The position numbers and the translations under genes were made by a program. DNA of 64,000 nt from Batkoa obscura. Lineage: Eukaryota. This document shows, in pieces, positions 1 through 29,244 of the stretch; positions within the stretch are counted from its first letter, which is position 1, and each line of letters begins with the position of its first letter. The stretch lies in contig JASVEC010000025.1 of assembly GCA_030770535.1 (NCBI GenBank), forward strand, positions 1-64,000, read 5' to 3'. Below the pieces are notes generated by a model that had not been told where the DNA came from, searched no databases, and worked only from the letters and a program-made list of their open reading frames with translations.

Positions 1-45
1 AGTGATAAAAGAGAGGATAGTAAGACTAATGATGAGTTTGTTCAT
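1..45 (-). CDS. Secreted Gly/Ser-rich family protein, 5' end only (runs off window)
   Basis: Reverse complement of 1-45 reads MNKLIISLTILSFIT, identical to the genes at 2218 and 4164; upstream 46-233 is a near-perfect inverted copy of 2031-2217. Confidence 0.9.
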   Translation of the reverse strand, partial: MNKLIISLTILSFIT

Positions 46-487
46 TTTGTGATTATATTATAGTGTATTTATTATCTGATATTAAATAAAAGTTATTAGT
101 TTTTTTGATATCTATTTCAATAGTTCTTTTCGAGTATTTATAGTACTGTTTTTCAATGTTTATTATAAATTTAGTATTTAATCTAATATATTAAATAAAA
201 TGCATCCAAAAGTTCGAATGTGAACTTTGGAGTAATGAATTTGTCTCCAATTTCTAGGGATAAATTTAAATTTGTTTATTTCATGCACAAGATTTTAGTC
301 CTTAAGCAGCTACTAGTGAAGTTGGTGTTTATCCAATTTATTAATGAGTTGTTTATGCTTTTTGGCCATAAACACAATCCTGCTAAAAAACTTCGTAATA
401 TAGCTTTTGCAGCTCTATTACGACTTAGTTAGCAATATTCTTTAGATTTAGATATTTGGTTGGTTTTTTTTACCGTTTAATCTTTAA

Positions 488-827
488 CCCGTTAGCATCC
501 CTTTCCCTAATCAAAAAGTGCTAATTTTTTCTGATATTAAATTTTTTGTTTTAACGATTAGTTTATACAATTTCCTAGGTTCCAAGTTTTAGATTTTTTG
601 CAATAAAAGCTCTGACTCTACACAATTGCCTAAAGCCATCTTTTTTCATGCATATGGGGTGTTTTTTTTTTTTATTTCATTACTTTTTCCATCTTTAAGC
701 GCTATTTGAGCGGAAAAATTGTTAGCAAAATTTTTAAACAAAAAATACACCTCCATATGTACACAACATACGCAGCAAGATTGGACAATTGTCATGATGT
801 AGACATACGGCATATGCGCTTGACGGG
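488..827. mobile_element. TTAA-flanked piggyBac-type non-autonomous element containing a nested MITE
   Basis: TTAA(484-487)-CCCGTTAGC...GCTTGACGGG-TTAA(828-831); CCC termini plus TTAA duplication. Confidence 0.65.
656..754 (+). mobile_element. ~98-bp MITE family A, copy 1
   Basis: GGGGTGTTTTT...AAAAATACACCTCC flanked by ATAT/ATAT; shares internal consensus with 16 other copies. Confidence 0.9.
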
Positions 828-2217
828 TTAAGTTTTAATAACTTAGCTAAAGTTAGGCTAAATTTACTCTCAAATGAACGGTTTATTAGGTTGTAAAAGA
901 GCTGCAATAGCCGTAAAAATGGAGAAAAAAATTATTAGGCACAAAACGGGTGCATAACATTTTCAGTTTTTAAAAAATGGCTATTGGGCCAAGCTTTATC
1001 TAATTTAAGTCTTAAGGGGTCTAAATCCAGAATGGTAACATTTAAAACTAATATTGTTTGTTTATTTATTTTTAACAAAAGTAATCTACTTAAAATGTAA
1101 CCCTCAATTAAAAATTAACTGACGCAGTATACTTTATATATTTCTTGCTTTCTTGATATTTTTAATATCAATTTAGAGGAATTATCCTTCTACGTTATTT
1201 TTTATGAGTTTTATATAGTATATTTGACTTTAACCTTTGATATTGAGTTAATATTAATCAATATATTAAATATCTCGGACAATTTTTTGTAAAATATTGA
1301 CTAGAGGTTATATATTGACAGAATAAATCCAACTGTGTTTTGCATACAAAGCTTATTTCCATAATTATAGTTTAAGTTTATGTCCTCATTATAAGTGTTT
1401 TATTTGATCGTATAAATTTGCTATAATTAAGATTTGTATACTTTAATCAATCCTGATTTAATTTTACTTCAAGTGGAAGAATTTTAGAAACTAATTTAAC
1501 TTACCTTAAAATCAATATCATTAAACAAGTCTTTATCAATAGTTTTACCTATATGCTCTAACGATTCATTCAATGTTAGATTATAAAAGCTATTTAGGAA
1601 TTAAAGATTAAAATTTAAAATTATGGTCATTACAGTTGTTAGTCCTGTAGTTTTAATTGAAAGCTAATATCGTTAAAAAAATAGAAACTCGTTTATTTTA
1701 AAAAGAATAATAGCATATTTAGTATGGGTATGAAGTTGTTAATCGTGTTTTTTTGTATTTTTTTATAAATGTCCAAGACACTATTAAGATGCTTCAGCTA
1801 TATTTACAGAATATAGCCCATATACTAAATAAATAAAAATTTCGCAAATTAGAATTAAAACATTATAATACTAATTGATTAGATACTTTATATAAAGCGA
1901 GCATGATGAGAACTACTATAATATCAATTAAATAATATAATTTAAATAATTAAGAAGCGATTAGTTTCAAAATATAAAACAAAAAGCAAATAAATTAAAA
2001 TCAAGCTAAAAGATGGAGAAATATTTGGACACTCCAAAGTTCACATTCGAACTTTTGGGTGCATTTTATTTAATATATTAGATTAAATACTAAATTTATA
2101 ATAAACATTGAAAAACAGTACTATAAATACTCGAAAAGAACTATTGAAATAGATATCAAAAAACTAATAACTTTTATTTAATATCAGATAATAAATACAC
2201 TATAATATAATCACAAA

Positions 2218-2733
2218 ATGAACAAACTCATCATTAGTCTTACTATCCTCTCTTTTATCACTGCTGCTCCTACTTTAGTTAAACGTGAAGCTGAAGGTCT
2301 TGGTTTAGGAGTAGGCTTAGGCTTAGGACGTAAAGGACATGGATCTGGATCTGGATCTGGATCTGGTCATGGATCTGGATCATCTGGCTATGGTTCAGGC
2401 TCAGGTTCAGGTTCATCTGGTCATGGATCAAATTCAGGCCTTGGATTAGGAGTAGGTTTAGGCTTAGGTTTAGGCTTAGGAGGTAATGGACATACATCTG
2501 GTTCTGGATCTGGTTCTGGATCTGGTTCTGGATCTGGATCGTCAGGCTCAGGATCAGGTTATGGATCTAGATCATCAGGGTCTGGATATGGCTTAGGCTC
2601 TTCAGGTTACGGCTCAGGATCAGGATCAGGTCATGGTGGTCTTGGTCTAGGATTAGGTTTAGGAGCTGGTGTTGGTCTTGGAAAAGGAGGCCTTGGATTA
2701 GGTCTTGGGGCTGGTGTAGGACTTGACCTTTAA
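2218..2733 (+). CDS. Secreted Gly/Ser-rich (Gly-X)n protein with Kex2 site
   Basis: Signal peptide, LVKR-EAE, alternating GL/GV and GS tracts; intronless; TATAAATA about 95 nt upstream. Confidence 0.92.
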   Translation: MNKLIISLTILSFITAAPTLVKREAEGLGLGVGLGLGRKGHGSGSGSGSGHGSGSSGYGSGSGSGSSGHGSNSGLGLGVGLGLGLGLGGNGHTSGSGSGSGSGSGSGSSGSGSGYGSRSSGSGYGLGSSGYGSGSGSGHGGLGLGLGLGAGVGLGKGGLGLGLGAGVGLDL

Positions 2734-3081
2734 TTATTATTTTTCAAAACATCATTAATCTTCAACTAATAAGTATCTTAAATTTACTAAAATAAAATAA
2801 TATACATTTTATATCATTTATTATTTATTGCTTTTAAATATACTAGTTATTTTTATACATTGAGATGTGTAGTATAGGTTTATACATATAAAAGCTGCTA
2901 AAACTGTAAAAATATTCATCAAGTTTTTATTTTCGGTTATTATCATTTTTTATCCTAGAATCTAACTTCTACAAATTTAAGGGCTCTTTAATTTTTTAAT
3001 ATTGATTAGTTATATTTTATTTTTTTATCTCTGTCTTTCTGAATCTTAAAAATATTTTACACCATATTTTCAATAGGACAT

Positions 3082-3173
3082 GGGGTGTTTTTTGGCTTCA
3101 TCACTTTTTCCATCTAAGTACTATTTGAGTGGAAAAATTGTTAGCAAAATTCTTAAATATAAAATAAATCCCC
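3082..3173 (+). mobile_element. MITE family A, copy 2
   Basis: GGGGTGTTTTTTGG...AAATCCCC; flanks ACAT/ATAT. Confidence 0.85.
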
Positions 3174-4163
3174 ATATCTTAATTTTTATTTCTATTTTAT
3201 CAACTTTTTACTTTTTCATTTTTTCATATATACCTATTACAAAGAAGTAAACAGCGACTTTATCTCAAGTAAAAGGAAATGTTTACAAATGTACATAGTA
3301 AATAGATAGATCATAACGACTGGTAATAAAGATAAAGAACCTAGCCCTCGCCAGCCAGATGCCTTTTTTGATTTTAGCTTCTCAGGATTTTAAAAAAAGT
3401 ATATTCGGGCTTTATCACAAGCGTACCATTAGCTAAGTAATAAAACTAGGAAGTTTATATTTTTAATTCGTATTTTTAAAGCTACATATATATGGCATTT
3501 TCTATGAAACAGTATAATTTTAAAAAAACCATTTTCATCTGTTTTCAGTAGTCAATATTTAATAATTAAACTTGTTTAAAAACTTACTAATATTTTTCTA
3601 ATATATTCAGTTTTTAAAGTATCAGGTTTTATTTTACCAAATTTCTAGTTCATTACTAATGGATAAATGAAGATGTACTAAAAGTGATTAAGTACAAAAG
3701 CAGTGAATTAAAAAGTGAAAAAAACATTGAGAGATTTTTAATACACAAAAATAAAATTTAAAAATTTATCTATACAAAACTTAACTTTGTTTTAGAAATT
3801 ATAAATATAACATTTTTGAATGAATAGTTTTTAAATTTGACTTTTTTCTGAAATTATGCAGTTTTGCATGAAATCTAATTTTTTCGATGGTAGCTAAAAA
3901 AGGCTATTTTGAACCATGAGAACTAAAAGGTTAGTGTACTAAAATTTAGCTAAAAAGGCTGGAAGCAAAATAATCTTCATTACTCCAAATTCACACTCAA
4001 ACTTTGGGGTTTTATAAGCAATATTTAATCTAATTCTATTTTTATAATAAACATTGAAAAACAGTACTATAAATACTCGAAAAGAACTATTGAAATAGAT
4101 ATCAAAAAACTAATAACTTTTATTTAATATCAGATAATAAATACACTATAATATAATCACAAA

Positions 4164-4817
4164 ATGAACAAACTCATCATTAGTCTTACTATCCTCTCTT
4201 TTATCACTGCTGCTCCTACTTTAGTTAAACGTGAAGCTGAAGGTCTTGGTTTAGGAGTAGGTTTAGGCTTAGGCTTAGGCTTAGGACGTAAAGGACATGG
4301 ATCTGGATCTGGATCTGGATCTGGATCTGGTCATGGATCTGGATCATCTGGCTATGGTTCAGGCTCAGGTTCAGGTTCATCTGGTCATGGATCAAATTCA
4401 GGCCTTGGATTAGGAGTAGGTTTAGGCTTAGGTTTAGGCTTAGGAGGTAATGGACATGGATCTGGATCTGGATCTGGTCATGGATCTGGATCATCTGGCT
4501 ATGGTTCAGGCTCAGGTTCAGGTTCATCTGGTCATGGATCAAATTCAGGCCTTGGATTAGGAGTAGGTTTAGGCTTAGGTTTAGGCTTAGGAGGTAATGG
4601 ACATACATCTGGTTACGGTTCTGGTTCTGGTTCTGGTTCATCAGGATCAGGATCGGGTTACGGATCAGGCTCTTCAGGCTCTTCAGGCTCTTCAGGCTAC
4701 GGTTCAGGTTCAGGTCGTGGTGGCCTTGATTTAGGTTTAGGCTTAGGAGCCGGTGTAGGTATTGGAAAGGGTGGTGTTGGATTAGGTGTTGGAACTGGTC
4801 TAGGGCTTAACCTTTAA
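4164..4817 (+). CDS. Secreted Gly/Ser-rich (Gly-X)n protein with internal ~49-aa duplication
   Basis: Same leader as 2218; GHGSG...GLGGN module present twice. Confidence 0.92.
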   Translation: MNKLIISLTILSFITAAPTLVKREAEGLGLGVGLGLGLGLGRKGHGSGSGSGSGSGHGSGSSGYGSGSGSGSSGHGSNSGLGLGVGLGLGLGLGGNGHGSGSGSGHGSGSSGYGSGSGSGSSGHGSNSGLGLGVGLGLGLGLGGNGHTSGYGSGSGSGSSGSGSGYGSGSSGSSGSSGYGSGSGRGGLDLGLGLGAGVGIGKGGVGLGVGTGLGLNL

Positions 4818-5293
4818 TTATTACTATTTAAATCATCAATAATCTTTAACTAATCTTTATCTTAAATTCACTAAAATAAAACAAAATATATTTTAAAAGA
4901 TTATATATTTTATACTTTTAGTACAATAATTTTATTACACTCTTTATGTCTACTGTGTGATTTATTATCAACAAATTGGTCAAATAATGTGAATTTCAAG
5001 CGCCAACGTTTACTGAATATATATTCAGTTATTTATGAGTGTCAATACTTTCAGTATATCTTTATATTTTTATTTTGAAAATATTACGCTCATTACTTTT
5101 GAATCCTTATCATTTTTGTTATAGTCCTTTAAGTTATAATTTATAATATCATAACCAAGGAATGTAGAGTTTTAAAGTCCTTTAAAATCGAGAACTTAAT
5201 ATGAGCATGTTTAAATTGGAGAGCCTATGTTTTTTCATATTACATAAAAAAACAATGTATCACCCATCTTTAGAAATGAAACGAACTGTATAT

Positions 5294-5391
5294 GGGGATG
5301 TACTTTTTTGTTTAAAAATTTTACCGGCAATCTTTCCGCTCAAACAACGCTTAAAGAATAAAAAAAGTAATGAAACCAAAAAAACACCCCT
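5294..5391 (-). mobile_element. MITE family A, copy 3
   Basis: GGGGATGTAC...AAAACACCCCT; flanks ATAT/ATAT. Confidence 0.88.
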
Positions 5392-6051
5392 ATATCATGG
5401 TAATTCTTATCAGCTATATCATAAAATTGTGATTTTTATAAAATAACAGCTTCTTAAACTATTGTTTTGTTTTTAAATAAACCCTAGACTAAAAACTTTA
5501 AGCTACATAATACATTTTAATAAAACTAGCTACTTAACTGTATTTTCCTTCACCCTCTATTATCAAACCTTAATTGTTCTAGTGGTTTTTACGGGATTCA
5601 TAGCAGCTTCACAGTCCTCCTTAATTATCACTTTCTCTTTGCATAGTTGTTAATGCTTTGGATTGAAAACTTCTACTTTTAGTAGCTAAATGGTGCAACT
5701 TTTTGTTTATCGCTTTCTGAAAAAGTAAGACTATATTGAAAAACTTACGTGCCTCCCAGAATAATCTTATTATTATAACATCCGAGAAATGCTAACTTAT
5801 TCTACTTCTCTCAGGCACGATAATTAAAACATTTGAAGTTATTTAAACATTAAGAAAAGTAACTACAGTAAGTATATAAAGTTAATTTAAGTTCAATTTG
5901 TAATGTGTTGCAATAAAAAATGATTTTAGCACTTAAATGTAAACTTTAAATAATTTTTACAATAAGTTTGAAGGTAGTTTATTATAAATAAGATGATTGA
6001 CTGAAGTGTGATCAAGTAAAATTAAAGTCCAACACTAACACCTAAATCAAC

Positions 6052-6474
6052 TCAATATCCGTACCCTTTATCGTATCCTGAGCCATATCCTGAGTTATAT
6101 CCCGGTTTACTACCAGTACTTACTCCTACACCAGCGCCTACTCCTAATAATGGATTTCCACCTAAACCTACTCCTACACCAGCGCCTACTCCTAATAACG
6201 GCTTACCACCTAAACCTAAACCTATTCCAGCTCCTACTCCTACTCCTACTCCTCCACTGCCATTTGATCCTGAACCATGGCTTGGATTATATCCTGAACC
6301 ATATCCTGGGTTTGAGCCATATCCTGGGTTTGAGCCATATCCTGGTTTCCCTCCTAAGCCTAAGCCTAAACCTAAACCTAAACCTAATCCAAGGGTATTA
6401 GCTTCACGTTTGTTCAAAGTTGGAGCAGCGGTAATAAAAGAAGTAATAGCAAGACTAATGATGAATTTATTCAT
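6052..6474 (-). CDS. Secreted Gly-rich protein with PGYGSN repeats
   Basis: Signal peptide, NKR-EA, (GL/GV)n tracts, PGYGSN repeats. Confidence 0.9.
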   Translation of the reverse strand: MNKFIISLAITSFITAAPTLNKREANTLGLGLGLGLGLGLGGKPGYGSNPGYGSNPGYGSGYNPSHGSGSNGSGGVGVGVGAGIGLGLGGKPLLGVGAGVGVGLGGNPLLGVGAGVGVSTGSKPGYNSGYGSGYDKGYGY

Positions 6475-6698
6475 TTTAAAGTATAATTTATGTTTAATAT
6501 AATATAATATAATATAAATGTGTTTGTATTTTGTTTTTTTTTGATCGATTTATCTACATATTTATATCTTTTAATATACCTAATAAAGCCAGTAGCATAG
6601 TTTTTTAGCTTTTTATTTTTAGTTTTAGCTTTTAAGCAACTTTTAGGATCTCAAGCCATTGTCTAGTTTTGACTACTGAGTCGTAAATTTAACTGTCT

Positions 6699-6791
6699 GG
6701 GGCTGTTTTTTTGGTTTTGTCACTTCCCATTTTTTAAGCACTATTGAGCAGGAAAATGTTAGCTAATTCTTAAACAAAAAGAAACATCTTC
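6699..6791 (+). mobile_element. MITE family A, copy 4 (degenerate)
   Basis: GGGGCTGTTTTTTTGG...AAACATCTTC; flanks GTCT/ATCT. Confidence 0.8.
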
Positions 6792-7096
6792 ATCTATTTT
6801 TTATTTGGCACTATGTGCTATGTTAGATGAATTTTATCACGATAATGTTTCTATAAATTTTATTTCTGTATATTCTTAAATATCTTATAATACAATCTTT
6901 AATAAATGTAATATATCACTTTCTTTGTAGTTACATTATATCTTAGATCAAATCAAAGCCCAACATCATTTTTCAATATGAGTTCAATATTTTTGCGTTT
7001 CATAGCTTAATTTACCTGGTTTAGAGGCTAATTTGATTTAATAACTATATTCATTTTCAGCTAAAAATAAAATATTATTGAACTCTTTTTGTATAT

Positions 7097-7194
7097 GGTG
7101 ATGTTTTTTTTCATTTAAGAATTTTACTAACAATCTTCCCACTTAAATAGCGCTTAAAAAATGGAAAAAGTGATAAAATTAAAAATACATCCTC
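7097..7194 (-). mobile_element. MITE family A, copy 5
   Basis: Consensus match; flanks ATAT/ATAT. Confidence 0.88.
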
Positions 7195-7783
7195 ATATGT
7201 TGATAATCATAAAAATTCTATTTGACTATTATTTTTTTATATTAGACAATTCCTCTTTTTGGCATATGTTATTTAACAATCTATGAAGATGTTTCTAATC
7301 AGTTTCTTATGTTAATTTAATATTGATTATCTGATTTTTAAGCTAAATTTCACACCTAAAAAAAGCCCATTTGATTGAGTGAAGTATTCGCATCAAATAC
7401 ATCTATTACAGCCTTTTTTCAAAACTTTTAACTGTTCATTTAAGAGTATTGTTTATCCTATAATTCACCAAATAGAAGCAACAGTTTTAAAAAAAATCAG
7501 CTATACAGATTATTTACTACAAAAATACTCACTAAATGGTTCGCAAAAGAGCTGCAACAGCTGGATCCAAAAGAGATTTTCAAAGCCTTTGGTAACTATT
7601 CTACGGCTGTTTAAGGTCCAACATTGGATATTTAACATAAACAACAGTAGATAAAATATATCAAGATCATAAGGGGCATTAGCTTTTTAAAAAGGTTAGT
7701 AATTTGCATATTCAATTTGTAGTTTTAAAAAAGTTTTAAAGAATCCAATTGAATCTTTATTATCTTTTGAAATTTGACGTTAA

Positions 7784-8027
7784 CCACTTGAGTACCGTGG
7801 ACGAATATTGTTCGCCAATCTTGGATTAAAATTCAATTATGATGAACATTGCTCCAATATGATTTTAAATTGAAATAAAATCTTGATAAACATTACTCCC
7901 ATGGTTGGAATTAAATTAGCCCTTTGAATATTGAGTTTTAAAAAAAGCTGGGTCAATTGGCGTAAAATCTATTAGAAATTATAATCCAACCAAACAGGAT
8001 TTTTTGAGGTGTCTGGCACTCAAAAGG
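7784..8027. mobile_element. piggyBac-type MITE family B, copy 1
   Basis: TTAA-CCACTTGAGTACC...GGCACTCAAAAGG-TTAA; related inverted copy at 57486-57664. Confidence 0.8.
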
Positions 8028-8677
8028 TTAACAAAACACTTAACACTATCGTCTTGAAAATTATAGTTAAAAAGCAGATTATTAAAAAACAAATGTTAGA
8101 TTAGGATTATCAGCTTCAAGATAAAATGTTAAAACAAAAATAGTTACAAAATTGATTTTGTATTCTATTAAATTTTATATTATTATTTAAAAAGATTAAG
8201 TTATAATACAATTATCATTTCGAATTAATCAGCTTTCATTTTCAATAAACTTTATTACTCTTTTTAATACTAAATGGAAAGTAATCAAGTTTTCGAATTT
8301 CAATCATTATAATATTAAAACTTTAACCTAAATTCCTTTGAAACTTTTTATTAATACTTAGTTGCTATTAAAACTATAACACTTGTATTACATTGGAAAT
8401 TTCGGATCAAATAAAATAATGAATAGCTGGATATACTATTTTGTGTTTTACAATAAACATACTATTCACCTTCAATTAGAATATAGAAAGCGCTATACTT
8501 TTATATACTAACTATCAAAAAATTAAGCTTCAAAATTGAACGCTAGAATTATAGGGATAATTTTTAGATATATTATATAACCTTAACTATTTAAATATAA
8601 CAATCATAAAAAATAGATAGATTTAACTATATCTTTATTTGAAATAGAATAACTAATTGAGTTGTAATTAGATAAAA

Positions 8678-9133
8678 TTAAAGTCGGATATTAAGTAAAT
8701 TCCCTTTGTTGTTGCTTGTACTGTATCCTGAGTTAGAACCATATCCTGAGTTATGTCCTGAGTTATGTCCTGAGTTATGTCCTGAGTTATATCCTGAGTT
8801 ATGTCCTGATTCATATTCTGGTTCACCTCCTAAACCTAAACCTAAGCTTGTACCTAAGTCTACTCCTACTCCTACTCCAAGAATATTACTTTCACGCTTA
8901 ACTAGAGCAGGATAACCTGGGTTTGATCCTGGGTTTGATCCTGGGCCATACCCTGGTTTTGAACCATGCCCTGAATTGGAATCATATTCTGGTTCACCTC
9001 CTAAACCTAAACCTAAGCCTAAATCTACACCAACTCCTACACCTAAACCGAGGGTATTAGCTTCATGCTTATTTGAAGTTGGAGCAGCAGCGACAAAAGA
9101 GAGGATAGTAAGACTAATGATGAGTTTGTTCAT
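8678..9133 (-). CDS. Secreted Gly-rich protein with two modules and an internal Kex2 site
   Basis: Signal peptide; NKH-EA-NTLGLGVGV module and LVKR-ES-NILGVGVGV module; SGHN repeats. Confidence 0.9.
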   Translation of the reverse strand: MNKLIISLTILSFVAAAPTSNKHEANTLGLGVGVGVDLGLGLGLGGEPEYDSNSGHGSKPGYGPGSNPGSNPGYPALVKRESNILGVGVGVDLGTSLGLGLGGEPEYESGHNSGYNSGHNSGHNSGHNSGYGSNSGYSTSNNKGNLLNIRL

Positions 9134-11194
9134 TTTTAAGATATGATATTAATTTAGTATGAAATAGATTTGTTTTTAATTTAATAGTTAGTTGGTAGAT
9201 TTATCACAGTATTTATATCTTTCATTATACTTAATAAAATTAAGCGATATAATTTTTTTAATTTTTTAGTTTTATTCTTAGTTTCTAATTATCCTTTAAG
9301 GCCCCAAGTTATATTTATTTTTATATACTAAATTGTATATTTAAATACCCTTTATTCCATTTATTATGGATGATATATTAAATCTCTTTCATCATTCATA
9401 TGTCTTTATAGATTTCATTTCTATATACCATTATACCACTTTTATCATATTATTTAAATGAGACTAATAGTTCAATAGTTTTATCTTCATATCATATCAT
9501 AAATATATTTAAAGTACAGCTTTATCATTCTATTTTAACATTTATTTATTTTATAATGTTTCATAGATAATTTTAACTTGCTTTAGAGGACAAGTTAATT
9601 TATTAACTAACAATTATTTTCATTCAAAAAATAAACCATTATTGAAATTTTATATGTATATTTTAATAACAAACAATATTTTAATTTCAAATATTGTTAG
9701 TTTTATATTAGATAATTACTATATTTGACTATTTCTATCAATATTGATTTTTTAACCCTTAATGCTATTTTTTTTAACGGTTTTCTAAGCTTATTTTAAC
9801 TGAACATTAGTACTTTTGTTTTATATTAACATTTGCATTGAAATCTTTTGTTTTAATTAGCATTCATATTTAATAAAATTCAAAGATTCTATTTTAGAAC
9901 CTCTAATAACTTTTTTAAAGATAATGAATGCATCAACGCTAGAAAGGGTATTAAATTTTTTTTTAAAATGGTAACTAAATTTATGTGTTATGAAAAGGTT
10001 CTAAAATATTCAAAGAATTTGCTTAAATCTTAATTAACTTTTTTATTTGATATTAATCAAACACTTGATGTTATTAATTTGAAAATTCTATTGAAATAAG
10101 TCCATTATCAAAAGAAACAGATTAAGCAAAGTTATCAATTTAAAAGATATAAAAGTTCAACAATGAGAGTATTAAAGTTGATCTTATTTTAAATGAAAAT
10201 TTCAGTTATTGTTTATAAACATGATATTATTTTAATATAAATAATAGTTTCCAATTAAGAGGTTTTTTTATTAAAATTGAATTTTATGATTTTTTTCAAA
10301 TTCAAGTTCCAACTTTTAATACCTTTTTAACAATTGATAATTTTCAAACAAAACATATCATCCAGGTGAATTATAGTAAAATAATTATTAAGTCATTAAT
10401 ATTAAAAAAAGTAATATTTATTTTCTACTAAGATATTTTAATAGAATAATAGAATCGATAACTCATAATACTATTGTCATCAAAAAGTTTAGTATCTAAG
10501 ATAAATGCTTTTGAAGCAAATAATATATTTAATAAACAGTCTTTAAATATAGTCACTATTTTTTATAGAAAAATTCTAAATGTCAACAACTTCGAAATTT
10601 TATTTTTACAAATTAAATTATTAAAATGTAATCCGGTTTATTATTCTGTTAATTCTGAATTCTAAATTGAGTGATTTTTAGGATCAAATGAATATTATGG
10701 TTCAATAAAAAAACTACGTATATTTCAAATTAGCTGTTTATTTTAAATAAAAATTTAATTTAAAATTTTAAACTTGCTACTTATTTATAAAAGCTAAAGA
10801 CCAAAAGAGAAACCGAGTATTAAAAAATGATTATCTAAATAAATTATTGAAATACATATAATAGTAACTGTTTAATTATATTATCTAGCTATTGAATTTG
10901 AATTTGAATTTTAAAATATTCTCTTTTTTGAAACTTCCTTTGAATTCAATCCCAAAATTTTTGATTCAAAAGGTTCCCATAATGTTTTAATCCAAATCAA
11001 TCAATTAGTCTGAATAGAGCTAAATCTTATTTAATTGGCTAAGATTTGTAACTAAAAGCTTAGTTCTATCCCACAACGAAAATATAAAAATATATTTCTT
11101 AGCTAAGGTTAATATGTTTATATTTAATCTAAGTTTATTCGCTCCTAAATCAAGTATATAATGTAAGTTAATTTCTTTACCTATGTTTCCATAT

Positions 11195-11272
11195 GTGATG
11201 ATACCTATTCAACCATAGAACTAATTGTATGATCATTAATGATTTCAACCTTTTACATGCATCACCAACTGA
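11195..11272 (+). ncRNA. Box C/D snoRNA, snR55/U33-like (18S Um1269 equivalent)
   Basis: Box C GTGATGA, box D CTGA; guide CATGCATCACCA pairs with 18S UGGUGGUGCAUG (one G-U); D+5 rule selects the U. Confidence 0.85.
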
Positions 11273-11420
11273 AGATTATTATGATAATCAAATACTTTAT
11301 TGATCATTTTACTAATTTAATTTTATTAGATGTTAAACACAAAGACATTATTATTGCACTGTTATAATAACTAAATGGTAAGTAATATGTTTCATTTAAA
11401 TTCAGAATAGAATGTTGGCG

Positions 11421-11504
11421 TTGATGAATGCAATTAACCATAGAACTAAGAATCTAATGAGAGCAATCACTAATGATTACAATTCAATGCATGCACCACT
11501 CTGA
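11421..11504 (+). ncRNA. Box C/D snoRNA, snR40/U32-like (18S Gm1271 equivalent)
   Basis: Box C TTGATGA, box D CTGA, terminal stem AATAGAAT..TGGC/GCCA.ATTCTATT; guide CATGCACCAC pairs with 18S GUGGUGCAUG. Confidence 0.87.
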
Positions 11505-11604
11505 GCCAGATTCTATTTATTATAAATAATTTTATTTTAAACATATATTAATATTCTTTTATTAGATGTAAGTAATAATTTCAATTCTTATTCTATTCAT
11601 CAAA

Positions 11605-11696
11605 ATGATGAAAAGATTTGAGCACTGGGCTCTGAATAGTTCTGAAGATAAGCTCTATATTCCTATCCAAAGACATTCAAACCGGATAGTTACTGA
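11605..11696 (+). ncRNA. Box C/D snoRNA, snR76-like (25S Cm2197 equivalent)
   Basis: ATGATGA, D' CTGA 11632, C' CTGAAGA, D CTGA; D' guide GAGCACTGGGC pairs with LSU GCCCAGUGCUC; GACATTCA complements adjacent UGAAUGUC. Confidence 0.88.
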
Positions 11697-11822
11697 TATT
11701 TTTATTAATATCATTAATTTTTATTGAGAATATAATTCTAATTTATACTCATTAGATTGTAAATTATAATTCAAATGTAATAAGGTAGGTATTTATTTTG
11801 ATTATTAATTTTTTAATTTTGC

Positions 11823-11897
11823 GTGATGATTGATTTTCTGTCAGTTCTGCTTCTGATGCAAGTATGAAGCTAATAAATCTCTTACCAAATTATCTGA
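11823..11897 (+). ncRNA. Box C/D snoRNA, snR61/U38-like (25S Am1133 equivalent)
   Basis: GTGATGA, D' CTGA 11853, D CTGA; guide CAGTTCTGCTT pairs with LSU AAGCAGAACUG; CTTACCAAA complements adjacent UUUGGUAAG. Confidence 0.88.
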
Positions 11898-12043
11898 TGA
11901 ATTGAATTTTTATTAACTGTTATCTTTGAATAATTTATTAATTTTCTATTATAGATATCCTAATGTATAGTTTGAAACTAAACATATAATGACTCATATA
12001 ATTCTTTAATGTAAGTATTTAGTTTAATTCTATATTAACTCAA

Positions 12044-12105
12044 ATGATGATCAATTCCGTGTTTCACCTGAAACTTTAATGATTACTAACCCCTTTTCAA
12101 CCTGA
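12044..12105 (+). ncRNA. Box C/D snoRNA with two guides (LSU UGAAACACGGA region; possible second LSU site)
   Basis: ATGATGA, D' CTGA 12068, C' ATGATTA, D CTGA; D' guide TCCGTGTTTCA; D guide CCCCTTTTCAA. Confidence 0.85.
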
Positions 12106-12476
12106 TTTTATTTAATCAATATAATTATCTAAGATAATGTATACTAATTATTGTTATTAGGTTCTACTATTGGTATACCACTAACCGACAACCTTAATAA
12201 TTGTTTAACTAGTTTATTAAAAATAAATATATTTATTGCTTATTTTTGTATATATCTATTTTCATAATTGAATCCTTACATATCTTTAATATTTCGTTTG
12301 TAAAAATAAAACCTGTTTTTTCACAGCTTTAATGATAGTGCAAAAATTCTACTCAAATGTAGCAACTGTTTAGAGGTTATTTCTAACTATTTTCATTTTT
12401 CAAGCGTAAAAATTAAACAGATTATTAACTAAATTAATAAAAAACATCTCATCAGCATGCTTGACATTCAACATAT

Positions 12477-12571
12477 GGGGGTGTCTTTTTGGCTTCATCA
12501 CTTTTTCTATTTTTAAGCGCCATTTGAGTGGAAAAATTGGTAGTAAAATTCTTAAACACAAATACATCCCC
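12477..12571 (+). mobile_element. MITE family A, copy 6
   Basis: GGGGGTGTC...AATACATCCCC; flanks ATAT/ATAT. Confidence 0.9.
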
Positions 12572-13506
12572 ATATAATAAAATTGTATTAAAAATTGGTT
12601 CTAAAATATGCATAGAACTAAAAGATTTGTTGCAAATAAAAACTTATTTTTTGAATCAAAAAACTAGTTACTTACAGGAAAATGTAATACGCTAGAAGGT
12701 AGTATTAAGTTTATAGATTTTAAAAAAATAGGCAGCTATCTCTCTCTGTCCTCTAAAATAAGCTTATATTGTAAATTCAACTTGGATAAAGATAAATAGG
12801 ATTATTAATAACGTAGGCATTCATCAGGGGTTAAATCAAAAGCTAAATTAATAAGTTTGCATTTATTATTTACATAAGATAAAATTACTTTTGTGAGACT
12901 ATTTTTAAAAGTTAGTACACCTAATTTAAAGTCTTTATGGTTTTTTTTACTAAACTCAAAGCTTGGCCATGTAAATTTTTTTCTTTCCCCTCTTTTTTAT
13001 TAGATAATTTTTTTAGCATAACTTCAATAATGTATTTTAAATATGGTGAAAAGAGTTAGAAGATCATTAAAAGGAAAAAATTGGGATTCTGATTATTAGT
13101 AACAATAATGGTAGCAGTAATAGTAATAGTAATAGTAGTGTTTTTTTTTTAAAACTAAACTTTGATTTCAGTAATATAATAAAATGGGTGCATAATTCAA
13201 TCAGTAAAATTAAAAAATTGACAACTTTACGATTTTTTAAAAACTTGGCGTTGGGATTACTTGACTACAAAATTTAAAAAAAGTCAAAAATTCATCCCTA
13301 AATTAATATGATAACTACTCCAACTAACAGTTGTAATTTGGGGTGGATTCTATTTAGCAAAAGTATCCATATACAAAATTACTACTATTACATATCAATA
13401 ACCCATCCCATAAATACTCCAACTCAACTCTCATAATAATTATCAAAAAATTATTACTATTATTATTATCTAATACTTAACAACACCTACAATACAGTCT
13501 ATTAAA

Positions 13507-13902
13507 ATGAATAAATTAATCATCAATCTTACTATTCTCTCTTTTATTACCGCTGCTTCTACTTTAGTTAAACGTGAAGCTGACGGACTTGATTTAGGTT
13601 TAGGTTTGGATTTGGGCTTAGGAGGTGGCAAGCATGGCTCAGGTTCAGGTTCAGGTTCAGGTTCAGGTTATGACGTTGGATCAGGGTCAGGATCTAGTTA
13701 CGGTTCGGGCTCAGGTTCAGAATCTAGTTACGGCTCAGGATCTAACTACGGCTCGGGCTTGGGCTCAGGATCTAGCTATACTCCAGATTCTGGCCATAGT
13801 TCAGGCCATGGATATAGTCATGGCGGTTTAGGCTTAGGAGTAGGAGCTGGAAAAGGAGGACTTGGATTAGGACTTGCAGCCGGTGTTGGACTTGATCTCT
13901 AA
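13507..13902 (+). CDS. Secreted Gly/Ser-rich (Gly-X)n protein
   Basis: Same leader family (LVKR-EAD), GS tracts, C-terminal GVGLDL as in the 2218 gene. Confidence 0.9.
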   Translation: MNKLIINLTILSFITAASTLVKREADGLDLGLGLDLGLGGGKHGSGSGSGSGSGYDVGSGSGSSYGSGSGSESSYGSGSNYGSGLGSGSSYTPDSGHSSGHGYSHGGLGLGVGAGKGGLGLGLAAGVGLDL

Positions 13903-14025
13903 TTATTAGCATTTGATTTATTGCTTATAGTTAACTAATTTTTAACTTTATCAAAATAAAGTTTACCTCTATTTCATCAATGTTGAATGATATTCTATTG
14001 ATTATTTACTCGATAAAATTTATAT

Positions 14026-14122
14026 GATGATGTATTTTTATATTAAGAATTTTACTAGCAATTTTTCCACCAAATTGCGCTTAAAAAATGAAAAAAATGA
14101 TGAAGCCAAAAAAAACACCCAC
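14026..14122 (-). mobile_element. MITE family A, copy 7
   Basis: Consensus match; flanks ATAT/ATAT. Confidence 0.85.
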
Positions 14123-14499
14123 ATATCAATATCAGTAAGTAGTGATGTTACAAATTAAACATTTAATTTAAATTCAATAGATTTACGATATTGCTATTTA
14201 GAATGCACTATAAGGATCAAATTCACTTGTATTTAATACTGTGAATGTATACGAATAATATGATATATTGTTCGAAAAATATTAAAATTTAATCAATTTA
14301 TGAAAGGGCATAGAATTATACTAATATTATTTAATTATATATTTGTTCATTTCAAGATTGCTACCTTTGCTAAACCATAAATGAGTTGTTTAGCAGCATT
14401 TAGCTCCAAATATTTCATACAAAAGTAGCGAAAGTTTAGTGTTAAGTAATAGCATATTATAAGTATTAATACACATATCAAACTCGAATTTAAATATAT

Positions 14500-14593
14500 C
14501 GAGGTGTTTTTTGGTTTCATCGCTTTTTCCATTTTTTAAGCACAACTTAGTGGAAAAATTGCTAGTAAATTCCTAAACGAAAAATACATCCCC
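14500..14593 (+). mobile_element. MITE family A, copy 8 (about 80 bp upstream of the Maf ATG)
   Basis: Consensus match; flanks ATAT/ATAT. Confidence 0.85.
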
Positions 14594-14671
14594 ATATTGA
14601 TTTTTAAATCCCAAGCATCAAATTTGAACTCCGAATTTCCTTTTTTAAAATCTTTGACTAAAAAAACTCCA

Positions 14672-17117: not shown

Positions 17118-17917
17118 TTAACCAACAGTTAAAAAGAAAACAAACAATAAACCATTTAAAATAGTAATTGGAGAACTTAAACTACCATTGGAAAATATAG
17201 AGGGTACCTTTGAACTTGTAGCTGTATTTGAAATTGAAGACTTCTTTTTACTATGATTATTATTGTCTTCTACAGTACAATTTTTGGAATTAGCACAGCC
17301 AATTGAACAAGAAGCATTGGAACCACAACGTAATTGACAACTTCTAATAGTTTCAGTACACGTAACAAATTCAGCTGGGAAAGTATAATCTATTAAAAAA
17401 AGTTAATAAATCTGAATATCATTTATAAAAAAACAAATAATAAACTTACTTTTAGTACTTGGTTGTACCCCATTATTGCAATAACAACGCCATTTAAAAT
17501 CAGCTGTATTACATTCATTAACCACAGCAAATGATTGAATTTCTCCACATACATTATCACAAAAATTCGTTTGATTTTGACATGTTTCTTCACGTACACT
17601 ATCCGAGATATCATCCTCTATTTAGAGATAAGATTAGTATGAATTATTATGTTATTTTATTATTATTATGTTATTGGGTATATGGATATATGTGGAGAGA
17701 CTATGGTGATAAAATACTTACTTTGTATTGATCCAGTAGGTTGATGATAAGTAGCTAAATCCGAAGGTTCCAAAGTAGGACTTGGAGTCAACAGAATTGG
17801 ATTAGCATTTGATACTACTGGACTTGTTACAGGTACTTTATTTACTACCGTGTTATTGGTTTTTGATGTAATGCTTAGAGCGAAATAAAAAGATAATAAT
17901 ATTATATTAAATTGCAT
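17118..17917 (-). CDS. Secreted Cys-rich, probably GPI-anchored surface protein (3 exons)
   Basis: Signal peptide; exon 2 TCQNQTNFCDNVC..NEC..WRCYC; exon 3 further Cys, Ser/Thr-rich stalk and hydrophobic tail ending LLFVFFLTVG. Confidence 0.8.
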
Positions 17918-18457
17918 TAGATTTTGGTTTTTAGTTGATTAAAAGAATAAATAACCGAAGTTGGTTATCTTTTATATTAGTTTTTAGTTTGGAGTATATG
18001 GACGTTTCTCTTTCATTGACTTTTAATCTCGATAACATACCCATTTGAATCAAATTTTGGACCGTTGTAATGATTGAAGTTCAAAATTATTTCTATCTAA
18101 TTGCTAAAAAATTATGGATTAGCCCAAAAAAAAAAATTCGAAAATAGCATTTGAAATTTTTAGTGCTCAAGATTAAAAAAATAAAATAAAATAAAATAAA
18201 ATAAAAACATAGTAAATAAAAAACCTATTTTTTTATAAGCAGTCAATTTAAAAAGTTATAAATTTAGTAACCCCGTTGAGGAAAAACAATTTTGAAAACA
18301 TGCAAAAGTAAAAGTGGCAATTTTAAGATTGAGAGGAAAGGAGGAGTAGGGAGATGAAGAGATCCGTTGAGTATCTCTACTATATTACAGGTAAAAAGGG
18401 AAACAAGTTTTATCTTAGAAACTAATATAAAATAAAACTTACTACATGTTCACCTTT

Positions 18458-19759
18458 TTAATAACGGTAATGGTTTGGCTTGAATGGACCTTCTGGTTTA
18501 ATACCAAGGTATTCTGATTGAGCATTATTAAGTTGAGTTAATTTAACACCTAGTTTGGAAAGATGAGCACGAGCTACTTCTTCATCAAGATGCTTTGGAA
18601 GCATATGAACACCTAATGGATAAGAAGCATTATCAGTCCAAAGGGCAATTTGAGCAAGTACTTGATTAGAGAAAGAATTGGACATAACAAAAGATGGATG
18701 ACCAGTAGCACAAGCTAAATTAACAAGACGACCTTCAGCTAATAAAATAATATGACGACCTGATGGCATAGTATATCTATCAACTTGTGGTTTAATGTTT
18801 TCTACTGATTTAGCATTAGCTTTTAACCAAGCAACATCAATTTCAACATCAAAATGACCAATGTTACATACAATGGAATCATCTTTCATTTTTAACATAT
18901 GCTCACCAGTGATAATATCTCTATTACCAGTGGTAGTGACGAAAATGTTAGCTTCATCTACAGAAGCATCTAAAGTAGTAACTTCATAACCTTCCATGGA
19001 AGCTTGTAAAGCATTAATTGGATCGATTTCAGTAACAATAACACGAGCACCCATACCACGTAAAGCAGCAGCACAACCTTTACCTACATCACCATAACCA
19101 GCAACAATGGCTACTTTACCAGCAATCATAACATCGGTGGCACGTTTAATACCATCAATTAAAGATTCACGACAACCGTATAAGTTATCAAATTTAGATT
19201 TGGTAACAGAATCATTAACGTTAATAGCAGGAATTCTAAGTTTACCTTCTTTAAGAGCAGTATAAAGATGGTGGACACCAGTAGTAGTTTCTTCAGATAC
19301 ACCTTTACATCCTTCAAGATATTGTGGATATTTGTCGTGAATGAGCTTAGTTAAATCACCTCCATCATCTAAGATAAGATTGAAGTGCTTACCATCCTTG
19401 AAAGAGGCAAGGGTTTGTTCAATACACCAAATATATTCTTCATCGGTTTCACCTTTCCAAGCGAAAACTGGTACACCGGTAGCAGCAATAGCAGCAGCAG
19501 CATGGTCTTGAGTAGAGAAAATATTACAGGAGGACCAAGTGACTTCAGCACCAAGAGCAGTTAAAGTTTCAATTAAGACAGCAGTTTGAATGGTCATATG
19601 TAAACATCCTACAATACGAGCACCAGCCAATGGTTGGCTTTTACCGAATTTTTCACGGAGGTACATGAGACCAGGCATCTCATTTTCAGCTAATTCAATT
19701 TCTTTACGACCGAAAGCGGCGAGGGAGATATCAGCAACTTTATAGTTTTGGGTAGCCAT
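18458..19759 (-). CDS. SAH1: S-adenosylhomocysteine hydrolase
   Basis: [38 protein letters not shown]; intronless, 433 aa. Confidence 0.98.
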
Positions 19760-21859
19760 TTTTTATATTTGGATTTTTCTTTTTGGAAAAAAGTAAGCTT
19801 GATATTCTATCCCAAAGCTTTATATACCTAGAATTGTAAGGATTTCAATGTTAGTTATTAATTTGATTTAGTTTTTTAATACTTAAGCAACACTATTGGT
19901 TTTGATAGAGAGTTATTCTTATCCTTGAGTTGTCATTGGTTTAACAGCTACAAAGCTTAATCTCCATAGTACGTTTTTGATAGAATTTTTTTGATAGTTT
20001 CAGATAGTAACCAATCAAATGTAAATTATCAACAATCCCTTATTATTCTTTAAAAAATATCTTGCTAAATTTTTAACCATTGAATTTCAACCAATAAAAT
20101 TTAGTTCGCTGTAAGTTGTAATTGTATGAATTTATTTAATGAGATTTACTATTCTTAATATGAAAATCGAATTATTAATCAAACGTGGTTCAAATATTGA
20201 ATGTTATTGATTAATATCGAAAGTTGATATTTTGTTGATAGTTCTTTTTATGATTATTACGTGTAAATAAAAAATTTGTTAGTAAATTGGAGACGTAGGG
20301 TATCTAATTAGTTATTAATATAACACTATTTAAAAATAATCCTAGTGTTTTGATTAGAAAAAATTGGAAAGTTTCTGGTTGCAATAGAAAGCATTTTTTA
20401 TTACTAAAATCAATAATTATTTCGACATAAAATTCATTAATGTTGCAATCAATTATCCTCGCGATAATTCTTTTCTTTTTAAAATATTGTGATTATTTTT
20501 GAAGTCATTTTATTTATATGGATTATTATTTTGATAATGAAATAATAACTTTCTTAATGTAATATATTTCATTTTAATTAGATGAAATAATTTTAGGTGG
20601 CTGTCACCGCTACAATGTTTATTATTATTTTTAGTAAGCACTATTACAATATGTGTATTACATGAAAATTCATAAATGTTGGATTATTCATTTTAGATAA
20701 AACAAAACAATAATCATTGTTTAATATCAATTTATTTTTCATGATACGTATCAAAACTAAGTTGGTTATCACTGTCTTTATACTTAATTTTTATCATCTA
20801 CAAATAAGAGTCAAATATTAAATAAACATGAGTATTAAGTAGTTGTTGAATTGGATAATAATAAAATTACCTTTTTAAAATCAATATAATAAAAACTGAT
20901 ACAATAATTATGATCTCACTTATAAGATAGTTTTATTTTAGTTTTATTAAAAATGATAGAAACTGTCAAAATTAACATGATCAAAAGCGTCAAAAGATAT
21001 TGATACAAAAATAAAGCGGAAAACATTTTAAAAAAGTTAGCATTTAACAATTAGAGAACAATCAACTTATTAAATAGACTAGTATTTTAAAAATAAACCC
21101 ATTTGTTTTATAAAAATTATAAATGTTATAAAAAATAAAATCTATTTACTTTCTCATATTATTTATACTGTAATAGCTATAAATATTTTAAATAGTTGAA
21201 AAATATAGTAAAATATTTAATAGTTCAATAAAAAAGCAATGATAAGTAATGCTTTTAAAGCATAATGTTGATTACTCAACCCAAATACTTGTAATAGTTT
21301 ATAAACAACTTGTAATATAACAACTTTAGATAATAGCAAATCAAACATGATCGAATTATAATAAAGTCATTAAAACTATAATATACCAGTATGTTTATCA
21401 AGATACTATGACTAATTTTGTGATAATAATATCAAATTAATTATTACTCCATTATTATTTAGCGCTTGAGGTGAAAGTAACTTGTTGAGCTGGGGTGCAA
21501 GAGAGAGCAGATATCTGGCTTCAATTTTCTAAGTAAATTTGCACTAATACCAAGTTTTAGATTGATCAGCTTTGTCGTAGCTAATTAAACAGTAGTTTCT
21601 TTAGAAACAGAAGCTGGAATCTCAATTATTCTTCTTTCTTTTACTTGTTCTTTATCCAGTTGAAAACTTATCATAGGCCTTACCTTTAAAACTAAAGTTC
21701 TATTGTTAAATTGGAACTGAAATTTATTAGCTTGGTTTATTTTTTAATGTATTTTAAATTCAATTATTAAATGGGCGTTGCTTATATGTGAAGATGGTGT
21801 CAAAGTCTTGAGCGTGATTTATAATCCACTTTATTTAAGGGATAATAAAAGTAGTATAT

Positions 21860-23874: not shown

Positions 23875-24030
23875 ATATCTTAATTATTTAAATATTAATG
23901 TTTTGTTTTTATATTAAAACTTATATACATTATTTAGTTTATTTTTTTATTATGTTTGTCTTTATTGTTTTATATAATTTATTATTAAACATTTTATATT
24001 TACAATATTTTATATAACATGTCAATATAT

Positions 24031-24231
24031 AAGGATGCATTTTTTTATTTAAGAATTTTACTAACAATTCTACCACTTAAATAGCGCTTAAAAAATGGAA
24101 AAAGTGACAAAATAAAAAAAACATCCTTATATGGGGATGTATTTTTATGTTTAAGAATTTTACCAACAATCTTCCTGCTGAAATAGCGCTCAAAAAATGG
24201 AAAAAATAATGAAACCAAAAAAAACATCCTC
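24031..24231 (-). mobile_element. MITE family A head-to-tail dimer (24031-24128 and 24133-24231)
   Basis: Two copies separated by a single ATAT, with ATAT outside both. Confidence 0.9.
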
Positions 24232-24556
24232 ATATGTTAGACAGTTAAATAGTTTTTTATAAAAATTATTAAAACTATTAAAAGATTTAAATAAAATTTA
24301 TAATAACTTATAAAAACATCAATGTCATTTTTAGTATTGAATAACAAAGAAATATTACCAAATCTATAATTAAGCCATTATAAATATTGAATAAATTGAA
24401 TATATTAAAAATATAAAAACAATAACTAAATTTAACAATTATAACTTATTTATTTAAAAATTCCAAGCCTTATCGAAAAGGATATGATTATCTTAATCAA
24501 ATCTACAAAACTAAATTCATTGATTGAACTCATTCTTTTCATCTAGAATCAAAAAA

Positions 24557-27848: not shown

Positions 27849-29244
27849 ATATTTCTGTTATTATTTTTTATTTTTTCATTATATGATTCAATTGAGTTTT
27901 CACCAAGAGAGGATCGTGAGGGATGTATGATAACTGAAAATAAAATATATTACTTAGATAGAGTTGTTCAATTTCTAAATTTAAATTATATGAAAATAGT
28001 CTTAAAGTATTTCAATTAGATTTAGAAAAAGGATTTAAGTTAGTCAATAATATTGTACCATGGAGAAGAAAGAATTCGATTAATCCACCAAAGGAGATGA
28101 CAAATGTAAAGCCATTTAAAACAAAAAGCACAAATAGAACAATAGTGAGTTTTCATAATACCGACAATATGAGAAAGTTGTACTTTAATATTATGATATT
28201 GATAAAAATGAATGGGACAACGAATGTTGGATTAAAGATTTGTTTAATGAAAAAAATATTAAAATGATAAATAAATACGAATACAATTTGTATTCAGTTA
28301 TTTTTCAAGATGCTATAAATTCAATGAGTTTCATATGACCGATAATATATTTTTTGATGGTATAAAAAAGATTTTACTATTTCAAGTTTATTGAATATTG
28401 AAACAAAAGAGGGAAAAAAATGATCAGTTTTCCTAATAACAGTGATACTATTCTTGCCTTGTTTGCTAAAACAATCGGCTTTAGTATTTTGAACGAAGCA
28501 AATCTAAAGATTTTCATAGCTCCATATTAAATGAATTAAATTTAGCAAATTCAGAGATAAAAAGTAACACTGTTGAGTTTGATATAGGCCCTCAATCAGC
28601 TTATTTAGTAAAAAGCAATGATTTGATTTATTTGTTTGGATTTATACAAATAAGAAAAGCAATGGCAGTTCATAAATTCGAGCTCAGCTCATTATCAATA
28701 ATAAAAACTAGTTTAGATACAAATAACCTTGGTTGTTCTACATTTTATAATGTTTGTTTAATTAATTTTTTTGGCAAAAGGCTTTTAGGATTTGGAAATA
28801 GAGGACCAGAAAAGATATAAGATAAAATTCAAGTATTAAATATAAATAACTGGGGAGAAATTGATAGCTTATTGTCTTTAGTTAAGGGAAATGATAATGG
28901 CAATACTAACAGCAGTAATGTAAAAACAGAGGAATCAAAAACAACAATCAGGGGATATTAATACTAATATTATTAGAGGAATCGCAGTGACTATATTTTT
29001 ATTAGTAATTCTAATATTGATATTCTAAAAATATAAACAGAAAGAAAAAAGAGCACTAAGTTTTATTTTAGATTCGATTTTTATTGAGAGAACTAATCCA
29101 TTAGATTCTAATAATAATTACAATAATAATGTATTGTATAGCCATTACCACGAAATTGGTAATGTTACTACTACACTACCTGAAAAACTACCAGTTAGGA
29201 TTGTAAGTGTGACAATTATAACTAGGGAAGAAAATCAGTTTTAA
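27849..29244 (+). pseudogene. Pseudogene of the Kelch-like single-pass membrane protein at 51092
   Basis: Colinear nucleotide similarity to 51092-52525 including upstream sequence; ATG is ATA, several frameshifts and stops. Confidence 0.9.

Follow-up and report, generated by a model that had tools for sequence, protein, structure and literature searches.

Within a 64,000-nucleotide stretch of Batkoa obscura DNA (GenBank assembly GCA_030770535.1, contig JASVEC010000025.1, positions 1 to 64,000 of the forward strand; hereafter the window), the first 13,902 nucleotides carry a cluster of genes for predicted secreted Gly-X proteins that, judged from sequence, constitutes a real, apparently undescribed, lineage-restricted gene family. 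The chances are about even that these proteins are secreted block-copolymer surfactants, whose (Gly-Leu/Val) blocks would act as beta-strands and self-assemble into a wall, spore or adhesive film at hydrophobic interfaces. This reading is proposed because of the block anatomy of the mature chains, the strands placed on those blocks in low-confidence AlphaFold models, and the precedent of the GL repeat in the magnetosome protein Mms6. An earlier note on this DNA had proposed a self-assembling surface family by way of likenesses to silk and to the Rep1 repellents of Ustilago maydis; the predicted surface family is still the best reading, while the Rep1 and silk-like steps towards it turn out weaker.

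Organization of the gene cluster

The cluster comprises five complete genes, each a single open reading frame (ORF), and the edge-cut leader of a sixth, distributed over 13.9 kb in both orientations. The earlier description of a cluster of six thus stands for five complete ORFs, while the sixth, g1 (1-45, minus strand), is limited to its first 15 codons; its Gly-X body is not visible because the gene is cut by the window edge. The g1 leader is identical to those of g2 and g3 (leader hidden Markov model (HMM) E 7e-08) and belongs to an inverted duplicate (1-233, minus strand, 99% identical) of the g2 promoter and leader (2031-2262), g1 and g2 being in divergent orientation. Gene g2 (2218-2733, plus strand, 171 amino acids) encodes the leader, LVKR-EA and four (Gly-Leu/Val) blocks, with spacers of Gly/Ser/His/Tyr and a C-terminal block pair linked via GKG, and g3 (4164-4817, plus strand, 217 amino acids) is g2-like with an internally duplicated block-plus-spacer unit. 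In g4 (6052-6474, minus strand, 140 amino acids) the leader and LNKR-EA are followed by one GL block, a Gly/Tyr/Asn/Pro spacer, three GV/GL blocks with GGKP and GGNP turns, and a Tyr-rich tail. Gene g5 (8678-9133, minus strand, 151 amino acids) is built of two tandem units, with KH-EA and then an internal LVKR-ES, and g6 (13507-13902, plus strand, 131 amino acids) is acidic (isoelectric point, pI, 4.6), showing Asp on the Gly face of its first block, a single 68-residue spacer and a C-terminal block pair.

Over the 64 kb, the leader HMM finds these six matches and no other, scoring the complete members at 83-117 bits. Promoters and leaders of g1, g2 and g3 are near-identical, with 99% identity across 233 nt and 91% across 551 nt; the g4/g5 pair is older, at 70% across 428 nt, and g6 is nearer g2/g3. 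A TATA-like box at 2122-2129 (plus strand) lies 96 nt upstream of the g2 ATG, and the same box is found 84-98 nt upstream of all six starts, with C for the first T in g6; the six boxes are not independent, since the copies are homologous, and TATAAATA occurs 47 times on the two strands of the 64 kb. AAA precedes the ATG in all six.

The coding frame is open in all five complete genes and the other frames are mostly stop-rich. Coding G+C is 0.41-0.47 against about one quarter for the genome, and within the repeats Gly is encoded by three to four different codons, with Leu and Ser codons likewise mixed. Synonymous to non-synonymous codon differences, as raw counts and not as a rate ratio (dN/dS), are 11:7 for the last 33 codons of g2/g3 and 6:1 for the last 17 of g2/g6, and these C-terminal differences were counted as support for constraint at the protein level. 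An antisense Pro-rich (PK/PT) reading was rejected, as it is open only in g4, has 2-10 stops in the other four genes, and contains no ATG-initiated ORF of 50 amino acids.

Leader and predicted processing sites

In all five complete proteins the leader begins with a basic N-terminus, continues into a core whose hydrophobicity reaches an 8-residue Kyte-Doolittle mean of 2.55-2.92, and has small residues at positions 15-17, features that by inspection describe a signal peptide, and the proteins are consequently predicted to be secreted. The shared leader of the earlier note is therefore common to all, while its KR-EA(E/D/N) junction appears in four of the five, g5 having KH-EAN and the internal LVKR-ES instead. 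Each protein contains a single KR; L-x-K-R occupies residues 20-23 in g2, g3, g4 and g6, is internal in g5, and an RK follows the first block in g2 and g3. The arrangement agrees with the Kex2 pro-domain pattern (aliphatic P4, Lys/Arg at P2 and Arg at P1 near the N-terminus), the cleavage itself being predicted, and fits the reported Kex2 preference for Leu at P4, Lys at P2 and a required Arg at P1 (PMC8528282); EA is described as a Ste13-type dipeptide (PMC6339444). The first site of g5, KH-EA, is likely uncut because its P1 is not Arg. In four proteins Kex2 would thus remove no more than a propeptide of 6-7 residues, and g5 alone would be split, into two chains. A single propeptide trim of this kind is an ordinary trait of fungal secreted proteins: among 120 effectors of plant pathogens, a putative Kex2 pro-domain is reported for about 30% (PMC8528282).

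Anatomy of the mature chains

The mature chains span 108-194 residues (9.6-16.2 kDa, pI 4.6-8.9, net charge +2 to -6), contain 26-45% Gly, and lack Trp and Phe; Cys is absent from all five, as had been claimed. Blocks of about 14 residues of Gly-Leu/Val alternate with spacers of 34-68 residues rich in Gly/Ser/Tyr/Asn/His, and some blocks are paired through 3-4-residue turns (GKG, GGKP, GGNP), such tight hairpin pairs being located at the C-terminus of g2, g3 and g6 and also within g4. When a block was called wherever Leu/Val/Ile/Ala held four or more successive alternate positions, a rule that overlooked g3's final block and a portion of one g5 block, 17 hydrophobic blocks were obtained in the five proteins, 10 of them with exactly seven such positions. 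Their hydrophobic face (n=110) consists of 75 Leu, 25 Val, 8 Ala and 2 Ile, and the opposite face (n=93) of 85 Gly, 7 Asp and 1 Ala. Tyr makes up only 3% of mature g2 and g3; across the family, 25 of 31 Tyr and 19 of 22 His are preceded by Gly, in exposed spacers.

The G-x-G fractions of g2 to g6 (0.82, 0.80, 0.65, 0.42 and 0.60) were compared with the maxima of 2000 shuffles each (0.42, 0.41, 0.46, 0.42 and 0.50), so that alternation exceeds chance in four proteins while g5 merely ties its maximum. The number of hydrophobic/polar runs is likewise below that of all 5000 shuffles in four of the five, g6 having 18 runs against a shuffled minimum of 17. The strict alternation attributed to the proteins is therefore confirmed for the hydrophobic blocks, whereas the polar spacers are looser, with Pro/Asn/Tyr-rich repeats in g4 and g5.

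Predicted structure and proposed mechanism

In single-sequence AlphaFold models the five GL blocks of g3 appear as five long strands (mean predicted local distance difference test score, pLDDT, 42.6) and g4 has four strands (mean pLDDT 53.6, 17 residues at 70-90), with the spacers of both modelled as coil at pLDDT <50. On these features, signal peptidase would cut after about residue 16-17 and Kex2 after L-x-K-R, so that the mature chain would begin at the first GL block, Ste13 trimming of EA being optional. Each block of about 14 residues would then form a one-faced strand, Leu/Val all pointing to one side and Gly, in places Asp, to the opposite side, and strands would pair as hairpins over the GKG, GGKP or GGNP turns and also between chains. 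The Leu/Val face would be laid on air, wax, lipid or a second sheet, while the long Gly/Ser/Tyr/His spacers would remain disordered, forming a hydrated gel or brush. Several strands on flexible hydrated tethers might in this manner produce an interfacial film or a physically cross-linked gel, which could, more speculatively, be hardened by cross-linking of the Gly-flanked Tyr and His. With Asp at 7 of the 93 positions of the Gly face, exposure of that face to water would suit better than silk-type close packing.

The conidial surface or mucilage, together with aerial structures, would be the most likely site; sequence does not discriminate between the roles of hydrophobin substitute, spore coat and adhesive. 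Entomophthoralean conidia are described as coated by a mucinous adhesive film (PMC9026835), and the adhesive of Entomophthora muscae is reported as undetermined, with hydrophobins merely hypothesised (PMC8588673). A scarcity of hydrophobins in the phylum also counts in favour of this reading, strict candidates having been reported for only one of six Zoopagomycota genomes (bioRxiv 2022.08.19.504535). In Mms6, replacement of the GL repeat by GA is reported to greatly disrupt self-assembly (PMC3742261).

Several considerations weigh against the surfactant-film reading. AlphaFold confidence is low for both g3 and g4, with no residue above 90; Foldseek searches with the two models gave no match at E ≤ 0.001, and no anchor or wall-binding domain is present in the five proteins. 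The recurring block length does not represent ten independent events, because the blocks are related by duplication, and codon counts are mixed elsewhere (6:6 at the g3/g6 C-terminus; 2:5 to 6:2 for leader pairs). As described in the Mms6 report, that protein forms micelles, not fibrils, so the precedent backs association and not amyloid. The one Zoopagomycota genome of the six with strict hydrophobin candidates is that of E. muscae (bioRxiv 2022.08.19.504535), and since this near relative has one, the lineage may not lack hydrophobins. Finally, the RNA status of the sequencing runs described next is a guess, and they bear no stage labels.

Matching contigs in sequencing runs

Four runs of one study (X1-X4), presumed to be RNA, contain 6-8% of the words of positions 1900-9400, and their contigs were placed on 1-9600 as evidence of presence only, given that depth cannot rank the genes. 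Contigs with zero differences were found for g3 (4457-4604 and 4575-4866, X1), g4 (5932-6414, and 5977-6483 from X3) and g5 (8761-8968, X4); g4 is without intron in the record of contig 5977-6483, because the whole ORF is bridged gap-free. Other contigs show 2-5 differences on g2 and 2-11 across g2 and the g3 end, which suggests further paralogues outside the window, possibly g1, or another strain. Individual cases are contig 4725-4866, with 11 differences from g3, and contig 2194-2303, with 3 from g2. The g2/g3 stretch has contigs in X1 and X4 and none in X2 and X3, g4 has its best coverage in X2 and X3, and no run covers several of the intergenic bins; this run-to-run pattern was not taken to indicate either stage-specific expression or RNA.

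Homologue and literature searches

Pfam returned no family at E ≤ 0.1 for any of the five proteins, and NCBIfam nothing significant (MamG, E 0.1, and MamD, E 0.97, with one of the five members each). In full-length searches, which are weakened by composition-bias filters, the family alignment against 5.8 billion proteins yielded 7981 scored candidates with none at E ≤ 0.001, and g5 alone yielded 1169 candidates with none at E ≤ 10. No characterised family in Pfam, NCBIfam or the protein searches thus claims these proteins. The leader profile recommended in the earlier note, run against 1.84 billion cluster representatives, found no true homologue and did not retrieve the family's own members from them. 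Its sole match (E 7.8e-04), a 1082-residue plant repeat protein lacking both a signal peptide and Gly blocks, was rejected as chance. Two metagenome contig scans gave 596 and 590 pattern matches, none of them confirmed.

Exact sequences of the five proteins are missing from a 15-billion collection in which the neighbouring SAHH is present; together with the failure of the leader profile to retrieve them, this makes the five genes appear unannotated in their own assembly, and absence from the proteomes of relatives therefore does not show genomic absence. Sequence matches in the PDB were engineered GS linkers and one hydrophobin chain that was not significant (E 0.67). The Atlas search gave a top score of 0.79 and, third, a "fibroin heavy chain-like" cluster (0.75), both serving as leads only. 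An ice-nucleation protein, considered for a GYGS likeness, was dropped, as neither a Thr-x-Thr pattern nor a Pfam match was found. A description of the family was not found in open-access full text, a scope to which subscription papers on entomophthoralean secretomes could add, and a full-text search with an eight-letter GL string found Mms6 as the only experimental precedent and no fungal work.

Comparison with known systems

Rep1 of U. maydis, which replaces hydrophobins at the hyphal surface, shares with the predicted proteins the Cys-free, secreted, Kex2-processed and amphipathic character (PMC3133707). Its 12 repeats are reported to give 10 peptides of 34-53 residues and one larger protein (PMC3133707), whereas four of the five proteins here would remain one chain with strands tethered by disordered spacers. 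The likeness is one of description, no sequence similarity having emerged from the searches, which included no direct alignment. The Rep1 analogy of the earlier note accordingly loses ground: with a single KR four proteins would undergo a propeptide trim only, and g5 alone resembles a multi-peptide precursor, so the family would not consist of Rep1-type polyproteins, Kex2 splitting only g5. Hydrophobins of class I/II are also small and secreted and assemble at interfaces, as is proposed here, but have eight conserved Cys in four disulfides, against none in this family. As judged by these sequence features, the family members are not hydrophobins and not repellents, and four of the five are not Kex2-processed repeat precursors (KEPs).

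The motif (GL)5 is identical in the magnetosome proteins Mms6, MamG and MamD, and drives self-assembly of Mms6 (PMC3742261). Those proteins are bacterial and membrane-associated, with one GL tract and an iron-binding tail, and no significant profile match links them to the family; the common GL motif is, by this comparison, convergent and not homologous. Class V plant glycine-rich proteins (GRPs) combine a signal peptide with GXGX repeats, a pattern present here, and form a compositional class that may be no true superfamily (PMC5852109). Unlike plant GRPs and silk, the proteins of the cluster have their X positions sorted into Leu/Val blocks and Ser/Tyr/His spacers, and carry a Kex2 propeptide. 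Silk fibroins have crystalline Gly-Ala/Gly-Ser repeats with small side chains and conserved terminal domains, and are far longer than chains of 10-16 kDa. The silk likeness lies in the signal peptide and GXGX repeats; the non-Gly face is Leu/Val and not Ala/Ser, Asp occurs on the Gly face, and terminal domains and Pfam matches are absent. Suckerins and barnacle cement proteins, alike by general description, alternate strand-forming with amorphous Gly/Tyr-rich blocks, being animal proteins of other strand chemistry.

Alternative explanations

The proteins might instead form a covalently cross-linked matrix in an inner wall or a resting-spore wall, much as wall GRPs do in plants, with strength given by Tyr/His cross-links and interfaces being minor. 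This is unlikely, though worth keeping in view: the signal peptide plus GXGX repeats is the class V pattern (PMC5852109), Gly precedes most Tyr and His of the exposed spacers, and tyrosinase domains are reported as over-represented in the E. muscae-unique secretome (PMC11105155), but the low Tyr content of g2 and g3 argues against it, and the one-faced hydrophobic residues in blocks of recurring length would be left unexplained. It is improbable that the proteins are membrane-active, antimicrobial or insect-directed factors whose Leu-faced, Gly-lined hairpins enter lipid. The tight hairpin pairs and the recent duplication of a tandem family within a lineage of insect pathogens fit such a role, and the Gly/His spacers may resemble glycine-rich antimicrobial peptides; against it, the net charge is unlike that of cationic antimicrobials, the mature chains have neither Trp/Phe nor a soluble carrier domain, and Foldseek gave no significant structural match to pore formers.

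That the genes encode Rep1-type KEPs releasing several short amphipathic peptides seems very unlikely, even if g5 consists of two tandem units split by LVKR-ES, an RK lies downstream of the first block in g2/g3, and Zoopagomycota are credited with the highest number of KEPs per strain (11.56; PMC7329392). Four of the five proteins have a single KR, RK and KH do not provide the P1 Arg that Kex2 needs (PMC8528282), the two units of g5 stay below the three-repeat minimum of a KEP survey, and that same source gives the STE13 signature as missing from Rep1 itself (PMC6339444). Finally, the repeats are slippage-prone hexamers, no homologue was found outside the window, and the genes seem missing from protein databases, all of which would suit repeats without function, or nearly neutral ones, that arose as by-products when hexamers slipped downstream of a duplicated leader. 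That explanation is nevertheless hardly credible considering (i) the five intact frames beside mostly stop-full alternatives, (ii) the raised coding G+C and varied synonymous codons within repeats, and (iii) the conserved TATA position and the matching contigs.

Genomic setting and lineage

The window is AT-rich (G+C 0.16-0.37 per 1-kb window) and eukaryotic in make-up, with housekeeping genes split by introns. The SAHH gene neighbouring the Gly-X cluster (18458-19762) shares 92% identity with that of E. muscae, while the figures for Basidiobolus and Conidiobolus coronatus are 86% and 82%, and in a tree of this one gene, with 27 rows hand-picked from 120 matches, its sister group is two E. muscae rows and two further rows (support 99/95). 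By SAHH identity and tree position, the host lineage is placed in Entomophthorales, beside Entomophthora. This position and the low G+C made a species of Neoconidiobolus grade seem likely, a G+C content of 26.46% having been published for C. obscurus (PMC9026835).

A dispersed element of about 105 bp with short terminal inverted repeats, similar to miniature inverted-repeat transposable elements (MITEs), is present in 17 copies per 64 kb, 75-90% identical to one reference copy. Copies lie at 655-761, 3077-3180, 5287-5395, 6695-6796, 7090-7198, 12473-12578, 14019-14126 and 14496-14600, with nine further ones as far as 59662 and a tandem pair near 24020-24240. The element, which is abundant among the run contigs placed on 1-9600, may with its eight copies in the first 15 kb have helped in the Gly-X gene duplications. 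Between g5 and g6, a C/D-box small nucleolar RNA, snR61 (RF00476, 55.1 bits, over the gathering score), was detected at 11818-11900 (plus strand). Elsewhere, a 481-residue ORF (51080-52525, plus strand) shows a weak Kelch match and a C-terminal transmembrane-like segment, and fragments of a frame-broken similar copy lie at 27962-28820 (plus strand). Two short ORFs at 60940-61849 (plus strand) with weak helix-turn-helix matches are possibly transposase relics. Short ORF pieces at 17118-17938 (minus strand) combine a signal-like start with a Cys-rich segment and a hydrophobic C-terminus, and may together represent one small membrane protein or one anchored by glycosylphosphatidylinositol.

Significance

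Secreted glycine-rich structural proteins and Kex2 sites are known; the design of a copolymer with one-faced GL blocks, in a hydrophobin-poor fungal order, is new. At its boldest, and only as a tentative and rather unlikely proposal, the family would be a third, independently evolved class of fungal surface-active proteins beside hydrophobins and repellents: single-chain (Gly-Leu)7/Gly-Ser-Tyr block copolymers forming the adhesive or water-repellent coat of entomophthoralean conidia, missed because gene callers mask simple repeats. Should the proteins be merely another glycine-rich wall filler, the significance would be modest; if the proposal is true, a Cys-free natural block-copolymer surfactant of 10-16 kDa would be of biomaterials interest. 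Because such genes can be unannotated in a public assembly, relatives may hide across early-diverging fungi. What glues the spores and cadavers of entomophthoralean infections to surfaces is described as undetermined (PMC8588673); the family offers small, easily synthesised, named candidates for that adhesive, which makes the adhesive question testable.

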